Of a DNA stretch of 64,000 bases, positions 14,539 through 63,918 are shown in pieces (position 1 is the stretch's first letter; each line of letters begins with the position of its first letter). The position numbers and the translations under genes were made by a program. The stretch spans positions 578 through 64,577 of the forward strand of contig CAXCCG010000003.1 of assembly GCA_963981015.1 (NCBI GenBank), in the 5' to 3' direction. The notes under the pieces are model-generated. The model did no database searches. It was not told the origin of the DNA and saw nothing but the letters and a program-made list of their open reading frames with translations. Origin of the DNA: an uncultured Gammaproteobacteria bacterium (GTDB lineage: Bacteria; Pseudomonadota; Gammaproteobacteria; GCF-002020875).

Positions 14539-15234
14539 ATGACACAACAAAAACTGACAGCAGTAGACTGCCCACAATGTGAACTGAGCGATGTATGCCG
14601 CCACCATGGTGAGGATGTGGCAAGCGCGACATTGGGAGAACAGACCCCGAAAAATAGTCTTCCCAAAGGGGAGTTTGTCTGCATTGAGGGGGAACCCTTT
14701 GAAAATCTTTACGCCATTCACCAAGGGGCTTTCAAAAGCGTTGTTTCGCTCTCTTCTGATGAAAATCGAGTAACCGGATTTTATTTCGCTGGTGAAATTA
14801 TTGGATCAGAGGCAGTCTGTGCCAATGAATATGGGCGTTCTGTTGTTGCGCTACAAGACAGTGAAGTCTGCATCATCGAAAAAAGTGCCTTTTCAATCGA
14901 TGGCGACGATCAGCAGGTGATCCGTCAGGGTTTGCTGGTTGCCATGAGCCATCAGGTGAGAAATGAGCAGTGGACAGGACTAATGGCAGCTCACCGTGCA
15001 GAATCTCGCGTTGCCCTATTTCTCTTTATGGTCTCTAAGCGACTTGAGTTTCATGGCTTTCCCACCAATGAATTTAGACTACCCATGTCCAGAGAGGATA
15101 TTGCCAGTTATCTCGGCCTTGCTGTTGAGACTGTTAGCCGCTCCTTTCAAAAACTGAAAAATGCGGGGCTGATTCAGGTCAGTGGCCGCAATGTAACCTT
15201 GGTAAGCCGATCGGCTCTGCAAGAATTTGAGTAG
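14539..15234 (+). CDS. Fnr-type Crp/Fnr family transcriptional regulator (N-terminal Cys cluster)
   Basis: N-terminal C-x2-C-x5-C (CPQCELSDVC) as in FNR, cNMP-binding fold, C-terminal HTH ...VSRSFQKLKNAGLI... Confidence 0.8.
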   Translation: MTQQKLTAVDCPQCELSDVCRHHGEDVASATLGEQTPKNSLPKGEFVCIEGEPFENLYAIHQGAFKSVVSLSSDENRVTGFYFAGEIIGSEAVCANEYGRSVVALQDSEVCIIEKSAFSIDGDDQQVIRQGLLVAMSHQVRNEQWTGLMAAHRAESRVALFLFMVSKRLEFHGFPTNEFRLPMSREDIASYLGLAVETVSRSFQKLKNAGLIQVSGRNVTLVSRSALQEFE

Positions 15235-15280: not shown

Positions 15281-15718
15281 TCAGACCTGCAATATAAAGG
15301 TTGCCGGCCCTTCGTTCACCAGAGAGACCCGCATATCCGCACCAAACTCACCCTGCCCAACCTCGGCATGTGCGGTGTGGGCATGTGCTACCAATAAATT
15401 ATAGAGCCGCTCCCCCTCTGCAGGAGATGCTGCTGTAGAAAATCCGGGGCGTAACCCCTTTCGGGTATCGGCTGCCAGGGTAAATTGTGGCACCAGCAGC
15501 AGCCCCCCCTCAATCTGCTTCAAAGAGTGGTTCATCTGCCCACCCTCATCCTCAAAGACCCGATAATTCAAAATTTTGTGCAGGAGTTTATCAACGCTGG
15601 AATCTATATCTTGTGGCTCAATACCCACCAACACCAACAGTCCTGCACCAATCTTTCCTATCCCCTTGCCCGCTACAGAGACCTCAGCTTGTGAGACACG
15701 TTGCAGTAAGCCGATCAC
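15281..15718 (-). CDS. dtd: D-aminoacyl-tRNA deacylase
   Basis: MIGLLQRVSQAEVSV...GAGLLVLVG...SQFTLAAD...SLVNEGPATF, 145 aa. Confidence 0.9.
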   Translation of the reverse strand: MIGLLQRVSQAEVSVAGKGIGKIGAGLLVLVGIEPQDIDSSVDKLLHKILNYRVFEDEGGQMNHSLKQIEGGLLLVPQFTLAADTRKGLRPGFSTAASPAEGERLYNLLVAHAHTAHAEVGQGEFGADMRVSLVNEGPATFILQV

Positions 15719-16263
15719 CGGGCAAATGGAAACATCAACTTCTCCGGCTCGGTAAACAGATTAATATCATACGCCATGCGCCCCATATTCTGGTCCATCC
15801 TCGCCATCGCACCACTCATCATGTTGATGTCCTGACTCATACCGGTGATAGAACTGGACATATCACCAATATTGACGGTCATTCCATCAATACGTCCCGC
15901 CATGGTCGCGATATTGAGGTTTAACTGATGCATATCCTGACTCATTCCCCCCATATTGGCAGACATCGACTGCATCCCAATACGAACTTTTCTGAAATCC
16001 TCAGACATCACCGCCTGCCCCTGCTCCATGCTCACGGCCATTGTGGACATCCGGGTACGCATATCCCGCATATCCTGAGACATGCTGGTGACATCCTTAC
16101 CCATCTGTACTACAGCGCTGGTCATCTGGTGCATGTTGACCCCCATGCTGAACATGAAGAGCCCCATTCCTCCACCAGCCACTATGGCTGCTAACAGAAG
16201 TGGTTTGCTTACACTACTCTTCTCCGGAGAAGTACCGGAGGATTCTGATTTAATTGGATCCAT
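15715..16263 (-). CDS. membrane-anchored methionine-rich repeat protein (unknown function)
   Basis: one N-terminal TM helix then ~130 aa with ~19% Met arranged in ~11-residue repeats (GMSQDM.., MTVNIGDMSSS, ITGMSQDINMM, SGAMARMDQNM); 4-bp overlap with dtd start. Confidence 0.55.
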   Translation of the reverse strand: MDPIKSESSGTSPEKSSVSKPLLLAAIVAGGGMGLFMFSMGVNMHQMTSAVVQMGKDVTSMSQDMRDMRTRMSTMAVSMEQGQAVMSEDFRKVRIGMQSMSANMGGMSQDMHQLNLNIATMAGRIDGMTVNIGDMSSSITGMSQDINMMSGAMARMDQNMGRMAYDINLFTEPEKLMFPFAR

Positions 16264-16272
16264 GATGCTATT

Positions 16273-16722
16273 CTAACACTGCTCCCACGGTAATTGACGA
16301 TATCTCCATCCACCCACGCTACTTCGTTGGTGTTTTTCGTTGAGCTCCCCCTCGAACCCCTCATCAATATTATAAATTTCAGTAAACCCATCTTCAACCA
16401 GCCGCTTGCCCGCTTCCAGAGAACGCTTACCACTACGGCAGATCAGAATCACCGGTGCGCTGTTAAAGGTGGAGCCCTCATGAACTCCACCCAGTAACAA
16501 TTTGCGAATATCGGTCGTGAATTCCGGGTTGATCTCCCAATCCGGCTCATCAATCCATGGAATATGGACCGCCCCCACGGGGTGCCCGACAAAAAGAAAT
16601 TCCATGCTGGAACGTACATCAACCAGCAGAATACGTGGATTATCCTGTACCATCTGCCATGCTTCGGCTGGTGTGACTGATTTGATCTCATTTGAAGTCA
16701 TTGTCTCCCCCTTGAACGGCAA
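16273..16722 (-). CDS. single-domain rhodanese sulfurtransferase
   Basis: rhodanese fold with active-site loop CRSGKRS. Confidence 0.8.
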   Translation of the reverse strand: MPFKGETMTSNEIKSVTPAEAWQMVQDNPRILLVDVRSSMEFLFVGHPVGAVHIPWIDEPDWEINPEFTTDIRKLLLGGVHEGSTFNSAPVILICRSGKRSLEAGKRLVEDGFTEIYNIDEGFEGELNEKHQRSSVGGWRYRQLPWEQC

Positions 16723-16784: not shown

Positions 16785-17525
16785 GTGCAAAACCGACTCC
16801 ATCATAAACCTCCAAAATCACTATTGCGTCAAGTAGGTCGAGCCATTGCTGACCATGAGATGATCCATGAAGGGGACCGACTGATGCTCGGTCTCTCAGG
16901 CGGAAAAGATTCTCTCTCACTACTACACATCCTGCTTCATCTACAGCGTCATGCTCCCATCCACTTTGAGATTGCTGCGATCACGGTTGATCCACAGATG
17001 GAGACCTTTAAACCGGCTGTGCTGCGGGAATATATGGCTTCACTGGGGGTCACCTGGTTTATGGTGGAGCAACCCATTATGGCACAGGCTGAAAATCATA
17101 TGAAAGGGGACTCTTACTGCTCCTGGTGTGCGCGAATGAAACGGGGGGTGATGTACACCACCCTGCGCAGAGAGGGTTACAACGTTTTGGCGCTGGCGCA
17201 ACATCTGGATGATCTGGCTGAGAGCTTTCTGATGTCAGCCTTTCATGAGGGGCGGCTCAACACCATGAAGGCCCACTACACCATTGCAGCAGAAGACCTT
17301 CGGGTGATACGACCTCTGGTCTATGCACGGGAGCGCCAACTGGCTGACTTTGCGGTTGAAGCAGACCTGCCCGTTGTGGCTGAGAACTGCCCAGCCTGCT
17401 ATACCAAACCGACGCAACGCGCACACATGAAGGCACTACTGGCCCAAGAGGAACAGACCACTCCTCACCTATTCAAAACGCTGCTTTCAACCATGAAACC
17501 ACTGCTGGAACGAAACTCAGCCTGA
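16785..17525 (+). CDS. ttcA: tRNA 2-thiocytidine(32) synthetase
   Basis: PP-loop LGLSGGKDSLSLLHIL and CSWCARM... Cys motifs. Confidence 0.85.
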   Translation: MQNRLHHKPPKSLLRQVGRAIADHEMIHEGDRLMLGLSGGKDSLSLLHILLHLQRHAPIHFEIAAITVDPQMETFKPAVLREYMASLGVTWFMVEQPIMAQAENHMKGDSYCSWCARMKRGVMYTTLRREGYNVLALAQHLDDLAESFLMSAFHEGRLNTMKAHYTIAAEDLRVIRPLVYARERQLADFAVEADLPVVAENCPACYTKPTQRAHMKALLAQEEQTTPHLFKTLLSTMKPLLERNSA

Positions 17526-17550: not shown

Positions 17551-20500
17551 TCACTCTGCAGAATCCTGTATCAGTGCCAACATCTGATCAACCGAGAGCT
17601 TACCGCTCTGATCACTTCCTTCCAGTAGCTGATCAGCAAGGTCACGTTTATGCTGATGGAGATCAACAATTTTCTCTTCAATCGTACCCTTTACCACCAA
17701 CCGGTAGATGGTAACCGGTCGGGTCTGCCCCATCCGATGGGCACGATCAGAGGCTTGATCTTCAACCGCCGGGTTCCACCAGGGGTCCATGTGAATCACA
17801 TAGTCCGCTGCCGTCAGGTTGAGACCTGAGCCACCCGCTTTAAGGCTAATCAGAAACAGCTCCCCCTCCCCCCCCTGGAAGGCATCCACTGCCTGTTTTC
17901 GCTTGCCAACCGGGGTAGAGCCATCGAGATACTGGTAACCAATTCCCCGGTTATCCAGGTATTCACGAATCAGGCTGAGGTGGCTGACAAACTGGCTGAA
18001 GACCAGAGCACGATGACCGTTTTCCAATAGTTCCTCCACCACTTCAGCAAAAACACGATGCTTGGCACTGGTGATGGCAGATTCAGAATCGATCAACCTG
18101 GGGTGACAGCAGGCCTGACGCAAGCGGGTAATCTCCGCCAAAATCTGTAAATGTTGTGGCCCGCCGGATGCACCTTGTCGCAACATATTGATGCGCTCGA
18201 CCGAGCGTTGGCGCAGCGCCTCCATAAATACCGCCTCCTCTTCACGCATCTCCACATGCAGGGTGATTTCGGTACGCGGTGGTAACTCGGAGAGTACATC
18301 ACGTTTCAATCTACGCAGAATAAAGGGGGCAATCAGACTCTTTAACTGCTGTCGCGCATCCTCACTTTTATCCACTTCAATCGGACGTGCGAAGCGTTGA
18401 TTAAAGCGCTCCAGTGAACCCAGCAGCCCCGGATTGATAAAACGGAACAGATTCCATAACTCTCCCAGATGGTTCTCGATAGGGGTACCGGTAGTAACTA
18501 CCCGAAAGTTGCCCTGCAGCCCCATCACCGTTTTTGAGCGTTTGGTCGCTGCATTTTTTATTGCCTGTGCCTCATCAACCACCACCGTCTGCCACTCTAT
18601 CGATTGTAGTAGTTTGGCTTCACGCTGTAACAGACCATAACTACAGATCACCAGATCATAGGGGGCCAGCTGTTCAATTAATACCGTACGCTCCCCGCCG
18701 CTGTACTCACCAAAAATCAGCGGGCGCAAGGTCGGGGCAAAACGGCTGGCCTCCTCACTCCAGTTCATACAGACCGAGGTTGGAGCCAACACCAATGTTG
18801 GCCCTTGTGCACTGCGTGACAGCGCTATACTCAACGCCTGTAGTGTTTTTCCCAGCCCCATGTCATCGGCAAGACAGGCACCTGCACCCCAGTGGGCAAG
18901 ACGCGCCATCCATTGGTAACCCTGGAACTGGTAGTCACGCAGATCGGCCTCTAATGTTTTTGGCAGCTCAGGCTCAAGATGGTATGCCTCTTCGATCTTC
19001 TCCCGTTGCTCCTCCCAACTGTGATTGGCCTGAAACTCCATCCCTTCCAGCGCCTCTTCCATCGCCGATAGGGCCAATGGATGCACCTTTCCCTCTTCCC
19101 CCCCAAAACTTCTCAACATCTCCAGCCGCTTCTGCAGCTCTCGGCTCAGCGCAAGAATTTCACCATCTTCCATCTTCAGAAAGCGTCCATTGGTGTGCTC
19201 CATCATCCCCCAAAGCTCTTTGAGCGCAACCACCTGCGTCTGACTCACCTGCAACGTACCTTCCAGCGCAAACCACTCACGGCTCTCCTGCACCCCAACC
19301 CGCATCTGCCCCAGGTTAATCTCACTCATTCTCGGGATCTTGGCACCACGCGGCCAATCCAACAGTACCTCTTCATCGGAAAGACTACGCAGGTAGAAGA
19401 GCATTTCGAGCGCCTCTTGCGGATCCTCCACCACGCGCTCATCCAGCAGATTATCCTCTTCTACCCCGATAAAGAGTTCCGGTACGATTGACTCGATACC
19501 ATTCACAATCTCCATCGCACGATGCTGCTCCTGCTGCAGGCTGCGGTGTGCCTGTACCTGTTTTCCATCCACCACGCCAAAAACAACACTGCCCCCCTTG
19601 CCGGGATAGAAGCGTGGTCCTGAGGGTCCCAATGGAGCCACCCAAAAACTGAAACGAATTCCATCAGACTCTGGCAAAAGGTGAATATGAGGAATGGTCT
19701 CCCCTTGTAGCTGTTTGACCCCCTCGGCAGCACCTCCAATCGCCGAATGTATGGTCAGTAGTGGAGCAATTGCCGTTATGCTCTCCAGTAGCCGCTGCTT
19801 GGCAGCCATTGGAATGGTGACCCCAGCTTGCCCCAAAATCTGCGCAACCCTCAAGTGTGGCGGTTCAAAACGGGAAATCACCAGACGACGCCCACCCTCC
19901 CAATGAGAACCAATCGAGCCATAACTCCCACTATCCTGCTGTGGAGGATAGGGGGTCAGTTGTACTCTGAGAGACTCTCCCAGCTCAACTTCGACCACCT
20001 CCAGCGCTGGCTCCTGCTGCACCACATCGACAGATATCGCACTCTTGTTGTCCAGCTCTACAGCAGGATGGTTGATCAGCTCCCAGAGAGCCCGTTCCAG
20101 ATTGAGCTCATGAACCAGCTTACGCTGATAACTACTGCCGGAGTAACTCTGTCGTTCACTGATGGTATTACAGATACGATGGTCTTGATCACTCAAATAG
20201 GGATACTGATCGCGCTCTTCATGGAGCTTCTTCAGTGCGATTGAACGACCTCGGCTCCAGCCTCCACTCTTGCCCAGTTTCTGCTCTCTGGGATGGAGCA
20301 GCGGCAATCCGCGCTCCTGCTTTTCAATACGCCACGCCAGCCGTTTGACCTCTTGCTCTTGCGGTGCCACCTCCTGCTGCTGTGCCATACCTGAAATGGC
20401 ATCCAGCACCATCTCCCATCTCTGTTTAGGGCGAATCAGGCTGGCCCAACCCTTCAATTCTGTTGATTGCAGACCACTCTCTGTCTCTTGAATCTGCTGT

Positions 20501-21777
20501 TGTAATTGATCAAACTGTTGACGATAGAGTCCGATGCCCACCTCATCTGCTCGAGCCAGGTACTGCTGTAACGACTCCAACAGCTCCACACTCAAGGTTT
20601 CACCGGTCCAAAAACGGGCAATGGCCTGAATCAACTGATCCCATGCGGAGTGGATACGCCCCCGTTGCAGTAGCGCACACTGCTTGACCTCGATCTCCCC
20701 CATCAATAGCTGCGCAACCTCTTTCATCATTGCCACTGAGAGTGTAAAGGTATCATCCAACAGTGATCCCAGTTCTGACTCCAGCATGTTCGCATGTTGA
20801 TCAGCCAGCACCACCACACGCTGTAGTGATGCAAAATCACCCGCCCTCAGATAGAGCATTTGTAAAAATAGCGGACCCGGCCCATCCACCAGTACCTCTT
20901 GCTCTTGAGTGGGTTCCAGCAGAGTCTGTGCAGTATCATATTCCCCCCGGACCATGGCACACCAGCCACGCAACTGATTGCTGCGGGGATCATCCAGCCC
21001 CTCCAACAGAGCCAGAGCCTCAGCTGCCTCCCCCCGATAGATGCGAAACAGTGCAGCCGTGTGTGCGACCGCAATCTGCTCTCCACTACTGGGTTCAACC
21101 TGGTTAACCCAAAAATCCCATAACAGCGGTGTTCCATCCACCTCCAACAGATCTGTACGGATCGCCCCCACCAAGGCATGGTAGTGGAGCCAATCGGGGA
21201 GTCTTTGCAACCACTGCTGCTGTACCGGAAAATAACAGAAGTTGGTAATCACCTCCTCTTTGTCTGCCGTAAGCAGCCCCTGCCAGGGATCGCTTTGATC
21301 CAGATCCAACCACCTCTTGAGGTACTCCATATCCCCGCGATAGAAGGCAAGGCGCAGTGGACGCATCTCCGGGTCAACACCAGCGGCCCAATAACCGGCA
21401 CTGATCTGGCGGTTGATCACACGGGTCACCTCCTCTACCAAGCCGTCCAATACCAGCTGTCGAGAAAGCAGGTCGACTAAAAATCGACTGCAGCGCAGAC
21501 GCTCTCCATCATCGGTGATCCACTCCTGCTCCTCCCACTTTCTACGCCATTGTGGCAGCATTTTTTTATAACGTGAGGCCAGGGGCGTCTCATCTGTGCT
21601 TTTCCACTGTAGTAGGGCCAGCAGCCGCTCCAGGGTTGCTGAAGGCAGAGGTAAATCTGCCAGTGACAGCACCTGCAACACACGCTGCTCATCTGCTGAA
21701 CAGTCACTCTCAAAGGCGCTGTAATAGCTCTCGAATCCAGGCCAATGTGGCTGGTTATCACTACTGTTTGTATTCAT
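17551..21777 (-). CDS. SNF2-family helicase (DEAD-like N + helicase C in C-terminal third) with ~900-aa N-terminal region of unknown function
   Basis: LADDMGLGKTLQALS (motif I), VVVDEAQAIKN (motif II), helicase C motifs; 1408 aa. Confidence 0.8.
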   Translation of the reverse strand: MNTNSSDNQPHWPGFESYYSAFESDCSADEQRVLQVLSLADLPLPSATLERLLALLQWKSTDETPLASRYKKMLPQWRRKWEEQEWITDDGERLRCSRFLVDLLSRQLVLDGLVEEVTRVINRQISAGYWAAGVDPEMRPLRLAFYRGDMEYLKRWLDLDQSDPWQGLLTADKEEVITNFCYFPVQQQWLQRLPDWLHYHALVGAIRTDLLEVDGTPLLWDFWVNQVEPSSGEQIAVAHTAALFRIYRGEAAEALALLEGLDDPRSNQLRGWCAMVRGEYDTAQTLLEPTQEQEVLVDGPGPLFLQMLYLRAGDFASLQRVVVLADQHANMLESELGSLLDDTFTLSVAMMKEVAQLLMGEIEVKQCALLQRGRIHSAWDQLIQAIARFWTGETLSVELLESLQQYLARADEVGIGLYRQQFDQLQQQIQETESGLQSTELKGWASLIRPKQRWEMVLDAISGMAQQQEVAPQEQEVKRLAWRIEKQERGLPLLHPREQKLGKSGGWSRGRSIALKKLHEERDQYPYLSDQDHRICNTISERQSYSGSSYQRKLVHELNLERALWELINHPAVELDNKSAISVDVVQQEPALEVVEVELGESLRVQLTPYPPQQDSGSYGSIGSHWEGGRRLVISRFEPPHLRVAQILGQAGVTIPMAAKQRLLESITAIAPLLTIHSAIGGAAEGVKQLQGETIPHIHLLPESDGIRFSFWVAPLGPSGPRFYPGKGGSVVFGVVDGKQVQAHRSLQQEQHRAMEIVNGIESIVPELFIGVEEDNLLDERVVEDPQEALEMLFYLRSLSDEEVLLDWPRGAKIPRMSEINLGQMRVGVQESREWFALEGTLQVSQTQVVALKELWGMMEHTNGRFLKMEDGEILALSRELQKRLEMLRSFGGEEGKVHPLALSAMEEALEGMEFQANHSWEEQREKIEEAYHLEPELPKTLEADLRDYQFQGYQWMARLAHWGAGACLADDMGLGKTLQALSIALSRSAQGPTLVLAPTSVCMNWSEEASRFAPTLRPLIFGEYSGGERTVLIEQLAPYDLVICSYGLLQREAKLLQSIEWQTVVVDEAQAIKNAATKRSKTVMGLQGNFRVVTTGTPIENHLGELWNLFRFINPGLLGSLERFNQRFARPIEVDKSEDARQQLKSLIAPFILRRLKRDVLSELPPRTEITLHVEMREEEAVFMEALRQRSVERINMLRQGASGGPQHLQILAEITRLRQACCHPRLIDSESAITSAKHRVFAEVVEELLENGHRALVFSQFVSHLSLIREYLDNRGIGYQYLDGSTPVGKRKQAVDAFQGGEGELFLISLKAGGSGLNLTAADYVIHMDPWWNPAVEDQASDRAHRMGQTRPVTIYRLVVKGTIEEKIVDLHQHKRDLADQLLEGSDQSGKLSVDQMLALIQDSAE

Positions 21778-21797: not shown

Positions 21798-23684
21798 TTA
21801 AACCTCGGCCAGATCTCCCCGCTTCTCTAACCAGCTCTTACGATCAGAAGCACGTTTTTTCGCCAGCAGCATATCCATAATCGAGTGGCTATCATCTCCT
21901 GATTCGATGGTCAGTTGCACCAAACGTCGGGTCTCTGATGCCATGGTGGTCTCTCTCAGCTGTAACGGGTTCATCTCACCCAGCCCTTTGAAACGCTGTA
22001 CGTTAACTTTACCTCGCTTTTTCTCGGCGGTAATTCGATCCAAAATCCCCTGTTTCTCGGCATCATCCAGGGCGTAATAGACCTCTTTCCCTACATCAAT
22101 ACGATAGAGAGGCGGCATCGCCACATAGACATGCCCCGCCATCACCAGGTTTGGGAAATGGCGCAAGAAGAGTGCGCAGAGCAGTGTAGCGATATGAAGT
22201 CCATCTGAATCTGCATCCGCAAGAATACAAATTTTTCCATAACGTAGTCCACCAAGTTCACTGCTCCCCGGCTCCATCCCCAAGGCTACCGAGATATCAT
22301 GCACCTCTTGAGAAGCGAGCACCTGCATCGGGTCAACTTCCCAGGTATTCAAAATCTTGCCACGTAGCGGCATAATCGCCTGAAATTCACGGTCACGCGC
22401 CTGTTTGGCGGAACCGCCTGCTGAATCACCCTCTACCAGAAACAGCTCCCCCTGCATGGGGTCTGCTGTAGAGCAGTCTGCCAATTTACCTGGCAAGGCT
22501 GGCCCACTGGTAATCTTTTTGCGCACCACTTTTTTACGGCTGCGCATCCGGCTCTGTGCATTATTGATCGCCAACTCGGCAATCTGCTCACCCAGGGCAG
22601 GGTGCTCATTCAGCCAGAGGCTAAAGGCATCTTTAACTACCCCGGAGACAAAGGCGGCCACCTCTCTGGAGGAGAGACGCTCTTTAGTCTGCCCGGCAAA
22701 TTGTGGATCTGCCATCTTGACTGAAAGGATGTAACTCACCCGTTCCCACACGTCTTCTGGCGTCAGCTTGACTCCCCGTGGTAACAAATTACGAAATTCG
22801 CAAAATTCACGCACCCCTTCCGTTAATCCTGCTCGCAAGCCATTTACATGAGTCCCTCCCTGTGGGGTTGGTACCAGATTCACATAACTCTCATTGACCG
22901 ATTCGCCCCCCTCCGGTAACCAGGCCACGGCCCACTCTGCCCCCTCATGTTCACTGTTACTGACCCCCATAAAGGGCTCTTCTTCCGGCACAGAGGGCAG
23001 ATCCCCGATCTGGCTCATCAAATACTGCTTGAGACCATCCTCATAGTGCCAATCATCTTCTTCACCACTCGCCTCATCTTTAAGGATGATACGCAGCCCA
23101 GGCTGCAGCACCGCCTTGGCACGCATCAGATGACGTAGTTTAGGTAGTGAAATCTTAGGGGAGTCAAAATACGAGACATCGGGCCAGAAGCGGATGGTAG
23201 TGCCGGTATTACGCTTTCCTACCGTACCGATCTGTTCCAGGTCACTGCGCTTTTCACCATTGGCGAAGGCCATATTCATCTCTCGACCATCACGGCGTAC
23301 CCACACCTCCAGATTTTTAGAGAGTGCATTGACTACCGAGACCCCAACACCATGAAGGCCTCCGGAGAACTGGTAGTTGTTACCGGAGAATTTGCCGCCT
23401 GCATGGAGACGGGTGAGGATCACCTCGATACCGGGCACCCCCTCTTCAGGGTGTATATCCGTGGGCATGCCCCGCCCATTGTCCTCAACTGAAACAGAAC
23501 CATCTTTGTGGATCATTACCTGAATACGGTCGGCGTGACCTGCCATCGCCTCATCGACGCTATTATCCAGCACCTCCTGAATCAGATGGTTCGGACGGGT
23601 GGTATCAGTGTACATCCCTGGACGTTTGCGGACCGGGTCCAGACCGGAGAGTACCTCAATCGCTGAGGCGTCGTAGTTAGACAT
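21798..23684 (-). CDS. parE: DNA topoisomerase IV subunit B
   Basis: 628 aa; near end-to-end match to ParE (MSNYDASAIEVLSGLDPVRKRPGMYTDTTRPNH...), too short for GyrB. Confidence 0.9.
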   Translation of the reverse strand: MSNYDASAIEVLSGLDPVRKRPGMYTDTTRPNHLIQEVLDNSVDEAMAGHADRIQVMIHKDGSVSVEDNGRGMPTDIHPEEGVPGIEVILTRLHAGGKFSGNNYQFSGGLHGVGVSVVNALSKNLEVWVRRDGREMNMAFANGEKRSDLEQIGTVGKRNTGTTIRFWPDVSYFDSPKISLPKLRHLMRAKAVLQPGLRIILKDEASGEEDDWHYEDGLKQYLMSQIGDLPSVPEEEPFMGVSNSEHEGAEWAVAWLPEGGESVNESYVNLVPTPQGGTHVNGLRAGLTEGVREFCEFRNLLPRGVKLTPEDVWERVSYILSVKMADPQFAGQTKERLSSREVAAFVSGVVKDAFSLWLNEHPALGEQIAELAINNAQSRMRSRKKVVRKKITSGPALPGKLADCSTADPMQGELFLVEGDSAGGSAKQARDREFQAIMPLRGKILNTWEVDPMQVLASQEVHDISVALGMEPGSSELGGLRYGKICILADADSDGLHIATLLCALFLRHFPNLVMAGHVYVAMPPLYRIDVGKEVYYALDDAEKQGILDRITAEKKRGKVNVQRFKGLGEMNPLQLRETTMASETRRLVQLTIESGDDSHSIMDMLLAKKRASDRKSWLEKRGDLAEV

Positions 23685-63127: not shown

Positions 63128-63352
63128 TACCGGTCTCTGCCTTGAAAAGGTGGAAGCCAACCGTCAATCGAGCTGCTGCATAAGGGCCTTTAGTTGCTGC
63201 TAAAGGTGGGTCTCAGTTTACCCGTTTTTTTCTCAATTTTGCCACAAGCCACCCCATTTCGCCGGTCCGGTTACGGCGGGCGTTAGGCTACAAAAAACAG
63301 CACATTATCAATGTATGTTGCATTGTGCGCATCGTGCGCTATAATTGATCGC

Positions 63353-63631
63353 ATGATCAAATCATTCAAGCATAAAGGCATTCAGAAATTTTTTGAAACT
63401 GGCGTCACTTCAGGGATAAATTCAGCGCATAAAAGCAAAATTAAAATGAGGTTAGTAGCTTTAGATACTGCAATATGCATAGATGATATGGATTTACCAG
63501 GCTTTCGTCTCCATCCGCTAAAAGGCAATAGAGAGGGAAGGTGGTCAATTGATGTGAACAAAAATTGGCGCATCACATTTGAGTTTACAGATGGAGATGC
63601 ATACATTGTAGATTATGAGGACTATCATTAA
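63353..63631 (+). CDS. higB: HigB-type (RelE/ParE superfamily) toxin
   Basis: MIKSFKHKGIQKFFETG... ~92 aa, gene order toxin-first with 1-bp overlap to an XRE antitoxin. Confidence 0.75.
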   Translation: MIKSFKHKGIQKFFETGVTSGINSAHKSKIKMRLVALDTAICIDDMDLPGFRLHPLKGNREGRWSIDVNKNWRITFEFTDGDAYIVDYEDYH

Positions 63632-63918
63632 TGAATATGCATAACCCACCACATCCTGGTGAATTTATCCGAGAGATATATCTTGATCCGCTTGGAATCA
63701 GTTACAGGGCAGTAGCTTTAAAGCTAAATGTATCCCCTTCAACATTCAACCGTATAATTCAAGGGCGTAGTAATATAAGTTCGGGGATGGCTTTACGGTT
63801 ATCAAAAACACTTGGAAGAACTCCTGAAAGCTGGCTTTCCATGCAAAGCAACTATAACCTTTATATGGCCAAGCAGCATATTAATCTTGATGAAGTTCAA
63901 GAGCTGGCAATGGCCTAA
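63631..63918 (+). CDS. higA: HigA-type HTH (XRE) antitoxin
   Basis: MNMHNPPHPGEFIREIYL... HTH LKLNVSPSTFNRIIQGRSNIS. Confidence 0.75.
   Translation: MNMHNPPHPGEFIREIYLDPLGISYRAVALKLNVSPSTFNRIIQGRSNISSGMALRLSKTLGRTPESWLSMQSNYNLYMAKQHINLDEVQELAMA

Follow-up and report, generated by a model that had tools for sequence, protein, structure and literature searches.

The hydrophobic cores of coiled coils are normally built from Leu, Ile or Val. A ligand set made of Met alone, in an oxidising compartment, classically marks Cu(I)/Ag(I) handling, as in the MxxxM triads of Ctr1, the Met-pair relay of CusA, the Met sites of CusB/CusF, or SilE/PcoE, all of which are Met-cluster Cu(I)/Ag(I) sites, and copper is stored by Csp1/Csp3, soluble four-helix bundles lined with Cys thiolates. 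Two further groups of proteins bear on the present case: the sulfur-globule proteins SgpA-D of Chromatiaceae, which have a structural role in these sulfur oxidisers, are secreted with cleaved signal peptides, carry Gly/Tyr-rich repeats and are tied to zero-valent sulfur outside the cytoplasm, and the long periplasmic helical elements of Lpp, TolA (domain II) and PqiB, whose needle is a hydrophobic helical tube proposed as a carrier of hydrophobic cargo. The only characterised bacterial protein that functions by its bulk methionine (Met) content is MrpX, encoded in the yedYZ-mrpX operon of Azospira suillum (PMC4436054). MrpX is small and soluble, has a cleaved signal peptide and 44% charged residues, is encoded together with MsrP/MsrQ (YedYZ), and belongs to the SigF regulon (PMC4436054). 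The protein described here is encoded in a 64,000-nt stretch of DNA from an uncultured gammaproteobacterium (the window, i.e. the full stretch), at a locus (15281-16722, minus strand) where the list of open reading frames (ORFs) gives three co-directional genes, for a rhodanese, a Met-rich protein of 182 residues, and D-aminoacyl-tRNA deacylase (dtd). Its Met residues are predicted to form the core of a long heptad coiled coil, named here a methionine zipper.

Met accounts for 30 of the 182 residues (16.5%) and for 25 of the 128 residues between positions 43 and 170 (19.5%), whereas all other ORFs of the window have 0-6%. An earlier annotation of this DNA, made from its letters (the original prediction), had called the composition unusual, and rightly so; its estimate of ~19% Met holds for the domain and the peptide strings it quoted are present in the protein, but its count of roughly 35 Met is too high for a protein that has 30 in total. 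It had further described these residues as arranged in ~11-residue repeats, and here the spacing tells otherwise. Autocorrelation of Met-Met distances peaks at 3, 4, 7, 14, 21, 28 and 35, and the Fourier power at a period of 3.5 residues is 3.59, compared with 0.16 +/- 0.16 in shuffled sequences (0 of 5000 shuffles reach it), whereas the power at periods 11, 3.67 and 7 stays at the level expected by chance from the same shuffles. An 11-residue periodicity of the apolipoprotein or tetrabrachion type is ruled out by both analyses, and the quoted 11-mers are arbitrary cuts through a heptad pattern.

In heptad notation, Met falls on a or d positions in 13 out of 13 cases within residues 33-86 and in 15 out of 16 within residues 86-172, i.e. 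28 of the 29 Met of residues 33-172. The two segments are joined by a register shift of +4 (a stutter, from register 2 to 6) around residues 82-90; with this stutter allowed, 40 of the 41 a/d positions in residues 33-172 are hydrophobic (M/I/L/V/F), including all 25 in the second segment, and the single exception is an invariant glycine, G82. Consecutive hydrophobic a/d heptads, combined with a predicted continuous helix, are what defines a canonical left-handed heptad coiled coil, and the pattern is indeed that of a heptad coiled coil with a methionine core.

Conservation singles out the same positions. Among 38 sequences of the subfamily to which the protein belongs, Met is 100% conserved at positions 37, 40, 44, 47, 54, 61, 68, 75, 142 and 149, many further core positions are Met in 84-97% of cases, and V51, V58 and G82 are invariant. 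On average, Met has a frequency of 0.68 at a/d and of 0.006 at the other five positions (b, c, e, f and g), the a/d positions holding almost only Met, with Ile or Val at some a positions. The flanking positions are occupied by T/S/A/N/G (e) and by D (35%), S, N or A (g) instead of the usual Glu/Lys pairs, and the subfamily has no Cys, 1.4% His and 0.3% Trp. Leu, the usual residue of coiled-coil cores and one nucleotide away from Met, almost never replaces it at the ten invariant core positions, in relatives whose GC content spans 32-70%. Since these Met are invariant and not swapped for Leu, the thioether itself appears to be under selection, and not mere hydrophobicity. We know of no described Met core of 130 residues conserved position by position across distant lineages.

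Could such a pattern arise in a frame that is no real gene, either by chance or as the antisense reflection of another gene? Opposite-strand ORFs do exist at 15487-15924 and 15928-16194. The minus-strand frame, however, is intact in at least 70 relatives and under strong purifying selection: between the window and five relatives, the proportion of synonymous differences (pS) is 0.70-0.97, i.e. saturated, that of nonsynonymous differences (pN) is 0.14-0.27, and dN/dS is about 0.05-0.12 where computable. A good Shine-Dalgarno sequence precedes most homologues, motifs are shared family-wide, and the structure is predicted with confidence. The intact frame, the purifying selection and the conserved Met positions rule the chance-ORF or antisense reading out, and its probability is negligible. 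Thus, neither a dN/dS near 1, nor frameshifts, nor a match to a characterised family was encountered, the three outcomes that the original prediction had named as telling against it. The two antisense ORFs, on the plus strand, are His-rich because CAT complements ATG, and are an artefact.

AlphaFold2 modelling of the monomer with a 54-sequence alignment gives one uninterrupted helix over residues 19-171 (mean per-residue confidence, pLDDT, 85.8, with 120 residues at 90 or more), and replaces an earlier run on 2 sequences that had returned a low-confidence broken helix. Beyond the membrane, this helix would extend over ~130 residues and ~19 nm. An isolated helix of 19 nm would not be stable, which makes self-association probable, and the chains would then form a parallel coiled coil in which stacked thioethers make up the core. 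The distal half, with Ile/Val at a and Met at d, resembles what dimer or trimer rules would call for, and the small residues at e and g would also permit larger bundles.

The single transmembrane (TM) helix of the original prediction is found at about residues 21-41, and the periplasmic location that it had suspected for the Met domain is the one predicted by the flanking charges: Lys and Arg are more abundant on the N-terminal than on the C-terminal side of the TM helix in 29 of the 38 subfamily sequences, and in 38 of 42 sequences of the broad family, which places the N-terminus in the cytoplasm and the rod in the periplasm. No cleaved Sec signal peptide is apparent in the protein, as the hydrophobic segment of 21 residues runs into the helix without any AxA-type site. 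Strong support thus exists for a bitopic protein of the inner membrane that has a cytoplasmic N-terminus and a predicted helical rod in the periplasm. Three regions are best conserved (Table 1): the outer half of the TM helix (GMGLFMxxMG), which combines the core residues M33, M37 and M40 with a Gly-rich packing face; the 60 membrane-proximal residues (MTxAVxQMGxDVxSM ... MAxSMVEGQAxMSxDFxRVRxGME); and the C-terminal tail (DINKFTRPExxMxPFxR), in which P173, P179 and F180 show little or no variation in either the subfamily or the broad family. The distal rod is variable, homologues differing there by indels of 7 or 14 residues.

This anatomy could suit an architectural rod, serving as a spacer or tether that reaches from the inner membrane to peptidoglycan, outer membrane or a periplasmic partner via the C-terminal tail (e.g. 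to tether flavocytochrome c or cytochromes), with Met chosen for side-chain flexibility and not for its chemistry. The ~19 nm deduced from the predicted helix are similar to the periplasm's width, conservation is seen in the membrane-proximal part and the tail while the rod between them varies, weak sequence matches to trimeric stalks and Lpp are obtained, and the neighbouring genes encode periplasmic redox proteins that possibly need anchors. Nevertheless, Lpp, TolA and PqiB show no homology to the protein (E of at least 0.5 for Lpp), differ in anchoring and domains, and have no Met core. Above all, Leu packs better and is yet essentially absent from the ten invariant positions of the 38 sequences, despite saturated synonymous divergence and the wide range of GC content, an exclusion for which it is difficult to account unless sulfur has a chemical role. 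A purely architectural role is accordingly held to be distinctly unlikely.

How far does this type of protein extend? Homologues with 82%, 66% and 43% identity are encoded in genomes (L005, L006 and L007, by the numbering used here for loci), and metagenomes add 68 further loci, or ~40 lineages at 85% identity. An exhaustive HMMER search retrieved 193 representatives at E <=1e-3, of which the short members (150-240 aa) share the TM helix, a Met each seven residues, and a tail of the form 'M.YD.N.M..P....PF'. Long matches such as archaeal surface proteins and phage fibres, with generic heptad repeats and 0.3-3% Met, were set aside, and the longer Met-rich matches revealed no informative domain fusion. 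The close subfamily and a distant branch align in hhalign with 99.3% probability, collinearly from TM helix to tail, and the window protein bears all four features of the family, i.e. the GMGLFMxxMG TM helix, Met at a/d, the stutter at G82, and the RPExxMxPFxR tail. Matches that carry a name are labelled 'hypothetical protein' and come from Chromatiaceae, Ectothiorhodospiraceae, Piscirickettsiaceae, and metagenome-assembled genomes (MAGs) of unclassified Gammaproteobacteria.

Sequence searches of Pfam, NCBIfam and PDB returned sub-threshold coiled-coil matches alone (DUF1664, DUF948, Lpp, sigma-1, gp26), Foldseek found no match for the single long helix, and literature searches turned up no description of such a family. 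DUF948 (YoxC-like) and DUF1664 deserve a closer look, as in them, too, a coiled coil comes after a TM helix at the N-terminus, and sub-threshold matches to them occur in 25 and 34, respectively, of 42 family members (best E 1.3e-7). The window protein scores 21.6 bits against a gathering cutoff of 34.6 for DUF1664, and 15.2 against 37.2 for DUF948; typical members of ~180 aa likewise remain under both cutoffs, and some of the long HMMER matches exceed the whole-protein cutoff of DUF1664 (e.g. P0020 with 47.2 bits, P0046 with 54.3 bits) by generic coiled coil, no single stretch passing it. Both domains, themselves of unknown function, differ from the family in not being Met-rich and in lacking the C-terminal RP...PF tail, and the matches to them are, judging by sequence, generic coiled-coil similarity. 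The protein, which the original prediction could not place in a known family, is thus a member of a previously undescribed gammaproteobacterial family, none of the described families fitting it.

Diverged members may occur side by side. A broad-family paralogue of 202 aa, ending in ...GRPLNFMNQFM..., is encoded at L034:198-806 (minus strand), on the same contig as a member of the close subfamily, so one genome can hold several diverged methionine-zipper proteins. Distant members are also found as tandem pairs (~183 + ~195 aa, with a 4-nt overlap) at L010:5453-8639, L012:5453-8624 and L013:461-3632. Such pairs, on contigs of Chromatiaceae type, lie directly upstream of a gene for an adenylate/guanylate cyclase of 675 aa with a tetratricopeptide repeat region, and their members share a conserved cytoplasmic N-terminal motif (RIARRTTxIIR) which the window protein lacks.

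Genomic context was evaluated in the 29 lineages with at least 1.5 kb of flanking sequence, and ~15 of them have at least one of an FccB-like flavoprotein, a cytochrome and a rhodanese nearby. A pentahaem (c554-like) and/or dihaem (PdsA-like or FccA) cytochrome c is encoded upstream, on the same strand, in ~9 lineages, and L086 is a further, looser case. An FccB-like flavoprotein lies no more than 3 genes away in 5 lineages, in differing arrangements (pentahaem-FccA-FccB-Met in L036, Met-FccA-FccB with overlapping or abutting genes in L043, FccB-Met in L034, and nearby in L031 and L023), the Pfam FCSD domains being verified in L034, L036 and L043. A rhodanese gene directly upstream is confined to a marine clade of 6 lineages including the window, 4-5 of which have dtd downstream (L022 has hisB there). 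The rhodanese/Met/dtd arrangement, which the original prediction had implied to be a functional unit, is absent from the other ~35 subfamily lineages; as a conserved functional module it was rejected, in favour of clade-specific synteny.

The pentahaem cytochromes (L031:1296-3558, L061:553-2893, L036:2159-4371 and L086:12220-13818) are proteins of ~500 aa with five CxxCH motifs and weak similarity to c554 and ExtKL, paired with a PdsA-like dihaem cytochrome that matches below threshold. The two may constitute an undescribed periplasmic electron-transfer module of sulfur oxidisers, and no family or solved relative was found for the pentahaem protein.

Because flavocytochrome c (FccAB), cytochrome c and rhodanese genes make up the only strongly recurrent context, to which the taxa and a neighbour of Sgp-like composition can be added, the reading favoured here, tentatively and with considerable doubt, is that of an accessory protein which serves the oxidation of reduced sulfur in the periplasm and binds zero-valent sulfur non-covalently in its thioether core. 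The thioether stack is taken as the functional element since its Met are positionally invariant. With its anchor in the inner membrane, the rod would stand next to flavocytochrome c sulfide dehydrogenase and the c-type cytochromes of that enzyme, and its thioether-lined core or groove would bind uncharged, hydrophobic zero-valent sulfur (S8 or polysulfane), to be held or handed along the rod, while the conserved C-terminal tail would dock a partner at the distal end. In the marine clade of the window, the gene would be co-transcribed with that of a cytoplasmic rhodanese, dtd being a probable housekeeping passenger.

A physical precedent comes from tetrabrachion's right-handed coiled coil (RHCC), from Staphylothermus marinus, which holds S8 (PMC6555900). 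Like the window protein, it is a long coiled-coil rod from what may be called a sulfur-metabolising microbe, with cyclo-octasulfur in its core cavities (PMC6555900); it differs in being a right-handed tetramer with 11-residue repeats and large cavities, in belonging to an archaeal S-layer, and in not being Met-rich, whereas the window protein is a heptad coil. A comparison with the sulfur-globule proteins is also instructive, although these are neither helical coiled coils nor Met-rich, and the window protein, with 1 Tyr in 182 residues and 9% Gly, is predicted to be all-helical and is anchored by a TM helix. The link here is one of neighbourhood: a secreted G/Y/P-rich protein of Sgp-like composition adjoins homologues in L023, L028, L033 and L040 (Table 1), and in two lineages a protein of this kind, with blocks of the type MMxPMGxMMxPM, directly follows the gene. 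In this protein, PGYGYPP repeats are broken by blocks such as MEKMMGPMGKMTEP...PMGRMMEPMREMM; its composition is reminiscent of sulfur-globule proteins, its Met blocks recall the 'Mets' motifs of Cu(I) proteins, and the L033 copy has no match in NCBIfam.

Several points weigh against a role in sulfur oxidation. Heptad coils of two to four strands lack a cavity, and we know of no experiment on, or precedent for, the binding of zero-valent sulfur by thioethers in a heptad coiled coil. With the rhodanese in the cytoplasm, the rod in the periplasm, and no Met in the inner half of the TM helix, there is no evident path across the membrane. Neighbourhoods are heterogeneous, the gene often lying 100-500 nt from its neighbours, and other clades have instead pirin/azoreductase-like/LysR/DegQ genes, a type I secretion system (T1SS), hemerythrin, NosZ or a Cu-type P-type ATPase. 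The 64-kb window contains no sox, dsr or fcc gene, so the sulfur metabolism of this host is not shown, and the taxon labels come from a few MAG titles only. A bolder version of the sulfur reading, in which the protein would be a Cys-free coiled-coil conduit or holder that spans the periplasm and carries zero-valent sulfur non-covalently, is quite improbable. Several chains would then assemble into a bundle or small alpha-helical barrel, in which the small residues at e/g would leave room for more than three helices; S8 or polysulfane made by flavocytochrome c sulfide dehydrogenase or by sulfide:quinone oxidoreductase would be solubilised in the Met-lined interior, and the sulfur would be moved or tethered between the inner membrane and sulfur deposits.

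In some clades, other neighbours have a stress or redox flavour. In one clade, a secreted protein of ~130 aa without a family is encoded directly upstream, in a neighbourhood with genes for pirin, a flavodoxin-like reductase and LysR upstream, and for DegQ and Hsp20 downstream. In 3 lineages the convergent gene encodes a hemerythrin, and a cytochrome c peroxidase gene lies near distant paralogues. In a soda-lake clade, the gene is followed by that for an ATP-binding cassette transporter of the T1SS, a CoA-disulfide-reductase-like flavoprotein being encoded divergently upstream. The 130-aa secreted protein (Table 1) has four Cys, its gene lies 13-40 nt upstream of the methionine-zipper gene, and searches of Pfam, NCBIfam and PDB found no family or solved relative for it.

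Such neighbours raise the possibility of an oxidant-responsive switch or sink, in which methionine sulfoxide would make the core polar and the coil would unzip, thereby consuming periplasmic oxidants, or reporting oxidative stress at the oxic-anoxic interface via changed interactions. The pirin-LysR and DegQ-Hsp20 neighbourhoods, hemerythrin, the cytochrome c peroxidase, the Fnr-like gene convergent in the window, and the cyclase that follows the distant paralogue pairs are all compatible with it, and MrpX is a precedent of a periplasmic Met-rich sacrificial protein (PMC4436054). The resemblance to MrpX is nonetheless limited to the periplasmic location and a Met content of about 16-20%. The window protein has a membrane anchor and few charges (17.6% D+E+K+R), and its Met are fixed in the buried core of a coiled coil, whereas those of MrpX follow no heptad order, and MrpX shows no sequence similarity to it in Pfam and NCBIfam searches. 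Moreover, a pure sink needs neither exact heptad placement nor 100% positional conservation, a conserved cytoplasmic domain that would carry a signal inward is missing from the subfamily, and neither msrPQ (yedYZ) nor msrA/B occurs among the Pfam-annotated genes within 10 kb on either side of the window gene, or among the recurrent neighbours at the 68 loci. An oxidation-driven function is consequently considered unlikely.

Cu(I)/Ag(I) binding or relay by the stacked Met layers has the best chemical precedent, in the Met clusters of Ctr1 and CusA. The likeness to these proteins lies in thioether-rich ligands in an oxidising compartment and in helical Met spaced at i/i+3/i+4, and the Met ladder begins here within the outer half of the TM helix, as that of Ctr1, an oligomer, starts where a TM helix ends on the outer side. 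The protein would provide periplasmic buffering, storage or transfer of Cu(I) for cuproenzymes such as NosZ or cbb3 oxidase, the choice of thioethers being due to their inertness towards sulfide or polysulfide, with which thiols react. The strict Met core, the lack of Cys and the frequent Asp at the flanking g positions would fit, and isolated copper hints exist in the neighbourhoods: L033 encodes a Sec-type NosZ two genes downstream and, between the two, a secreted protein with MxxM-type blocks, L068 has the C-terminus of a Cu-type P-type ATPase upstream, and a resistance-nodulation-division (RND) pump with its adaptor is encoded downstream in L034, although this pump scores best as a multidrug type.

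Known Cu proteins of the Met-cluster type, however, have a few Met sites in globular or polytopic folds, usually combined with His or Trp, a mixture found in most Cu(I) sites of the periplasm, and their genes belong to cop/cus/pco/sil loci, whereas the window protein has ~28 consecutive Met core layers, hardly any His (2 in 182 residues, and hence little room for mixed MxxH or HxxM motifs), and no such locus nearby. The models of CusF, CopC/PcoC and PcoE/SilE in Pfam and NCBIfam give no match at E <=1, and no cop, cus, pco, sco or pcuAC gene is recurrent as a neighbour in the ~29 evaluable lineages. The domain is about electroneutral and so could not hold many cations, which weakens the case further, and 72,556 plasmids contain 0 homologues. 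Csp1/Csp3 resemble the protein in having a helical core lined lengthwise by one type of sulfur residue, but the latter has one long helix per chain, Met thioethers without any Cys, and a TM anchor. Taken together, these comparisons make a role in copper handling rather unlikely, and in sequence terms the protein is neither MrpX-like nor a classical Cu protein.

What seems new is an all-methionine-core coiled-coil membrane protein that defines a family, and what is known is its canonical building plan, a heptad coiled coil anchored in the inner membrane. A stack of ~28 thioether layers implies chemistry, either ligand binding or redox. The family is widespread in environmental Gammaproteobacteria of soda lakes, sediments and oxygen-minimum waters, is unannotated everywhere, and appears to be found mainly in sulfur-oxidising bacteria, with a function that is putative. 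If its ligand is zero-valent sulfur, it would fill a gap in the periplasmic handling and trafficking of this hydrophobic, insoluble form in sulfur oxidisers, and a true conduit would add a new class of carrier in which sulfur is handled non-covalently and no Cys takes part; with Cu(I) as ligand, the family would represent a new, Cys-free way of holding copper in sulfidic habitats; and a zipper triggered by oxidation would amount to a periplasmic redox switch of a new kind.

At the locus itself, the rhodanese, the Met-rich ORF without a family and Dtd lie where the original prediction had put them, and the ttcA gene it had seen diverging from the operon is a TtcA-like PP-loop gene in that very orientation (Table 1). 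The translational coupling it had read as ATGA is GTGA in the window; the ATGA form occurs in relatives L005 and L019, and a 4-nt overlap with dtd in L005, L006 and L019. Upstream, 9 nt separate the rhodanese stop from the ATG of the methionine-zipper gene. The identical 182-aa protein, with the same neighbours, is found on ENA, JGI and NCBI contigs and in 260 blocks of the collection, which means that its uncultured bacterial host has been sampled often.

Table 1. Coordinates of the features of the locus (window positions) and of recurrent secreted neighbours in other loci.
Feature	Position	Strand	Basis or remark
Fnr/Crp-family regulator gene, convergent downstream	14539..15234	+	NF008365 + PF00027, PF13545, PF00325
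dtd (D-aminoacyl-tRNA deacylase), 145 aa	15281..15718	-	PF02580 E 1.1e-50
GTGA overlap of methionine-zipper stop and dtd GTG start (15718)	15715..15718	-	read from sequence
Methionine-zipper gene, 182 aa	15715..16263	-	ATG at 16263, TGA stop 15717-15715
Residues 172-182, conserved C-terminal tail EPEKLMFPFAR	15718..15750	-	family consensus RPExxMxPFxR
Residues 33-171, continuous heptad coiled coil, Met at a/d	15751..16167	-	
Residues 79-93, stutter with invariant G82	15985..16029	-	motif SM(V/E)(E/Q)GQAxMSxDFxxVR
Residues 21-41, single TM helix LLLAAIVAGGGMGLFMFSMGV	16141..16203	-	best hydrophobic window
Residues 1-20, short poorly conserved N-terminal tail, predicted cytoplasmic, low pLDDT	16204..16263	-	
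Single-domain rhodanese gene, 142 aa	16273..16701	-	PF00581 E 3.4e-14
Sigma-70-like pair TTGAAG-17-TATAAT inside rhodanese gene (possible internal promoter)	16369..16397	-	~105 nt upstream of methionine-zipper ATG
TtcA-like PP-loop tRNA thiolase gene, divergent upstream	16785..17525	+	NF007972, PF01171
130-aa secreted protein	L046:1785-2183, L061:3205-3618, L042:4057-4479, L056:5160-5825, L088:7590-7982		
Secreted G/Y/P-rich protein, ~200-250 aa	L033:6132-6839; also L023:2052-2660, L028:959-1660, L040:1141-1896		

The rhodanese start in Table 1 is the ATG called on public contigs. The enzyme has no signal peptide, carries the active-site loop CRSGKRS, and has 8w14 and 2fsx as closest solved chains; its C-terminal PWEQC is conserved, and the orthologues in L005, L006, L019 and L022 share with it the ending GGWR.R.LPWEQC and thus a C-terminal Cys. 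Dtd matches TIGR00256 with 175.5 bits (cutoff 101.5), the TtcA-like protein matches NF007972 below the 272-bit cutoff (216.8 bits, E 3.8e-64), and the Fnr-like protein matches NF008365, also below cutoff (E 1e-37). The promoter-like pair inside the rhodanese gene is a possible internal promoter without statistical support, as a promoter and terminator scan of the window operon found nothing above expectation (1 site, compared with 2.9 +/- 2.0 in shuffles), and neither sigma-54 nor FNR boxes were found upstream of the homologues.

The rest of the window encodes housekeeping functions (his, tat, pur, rib, gln and similar), and its 64 kb contain no Rfam match and no tRNA. Within the histidine operon, a Ysc84-domain gene (PF04366; 10288-11013, minus strand) is inserted between hisI and hisE, its product having a signal-peptide-like N-terminus, and the gene is placed alike in relatives L019 and L022. 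A SNF2-family helicase of 1408 aa (17551-21777, minus strand) carries PF00176 and PF00271 at its C-terminal end and ~900 N-terminal residues without annotated domain, and its gene adjoins that of a GyrB/ParE-type topoisomerase subunit (21798-23684). At the edge of the window (63311-63918, plus strand), two small abutting ORFs of 106 and 95 aa may form a HigB/HigA-type pair, the second resembling a helix-turn-helix antitoxin.

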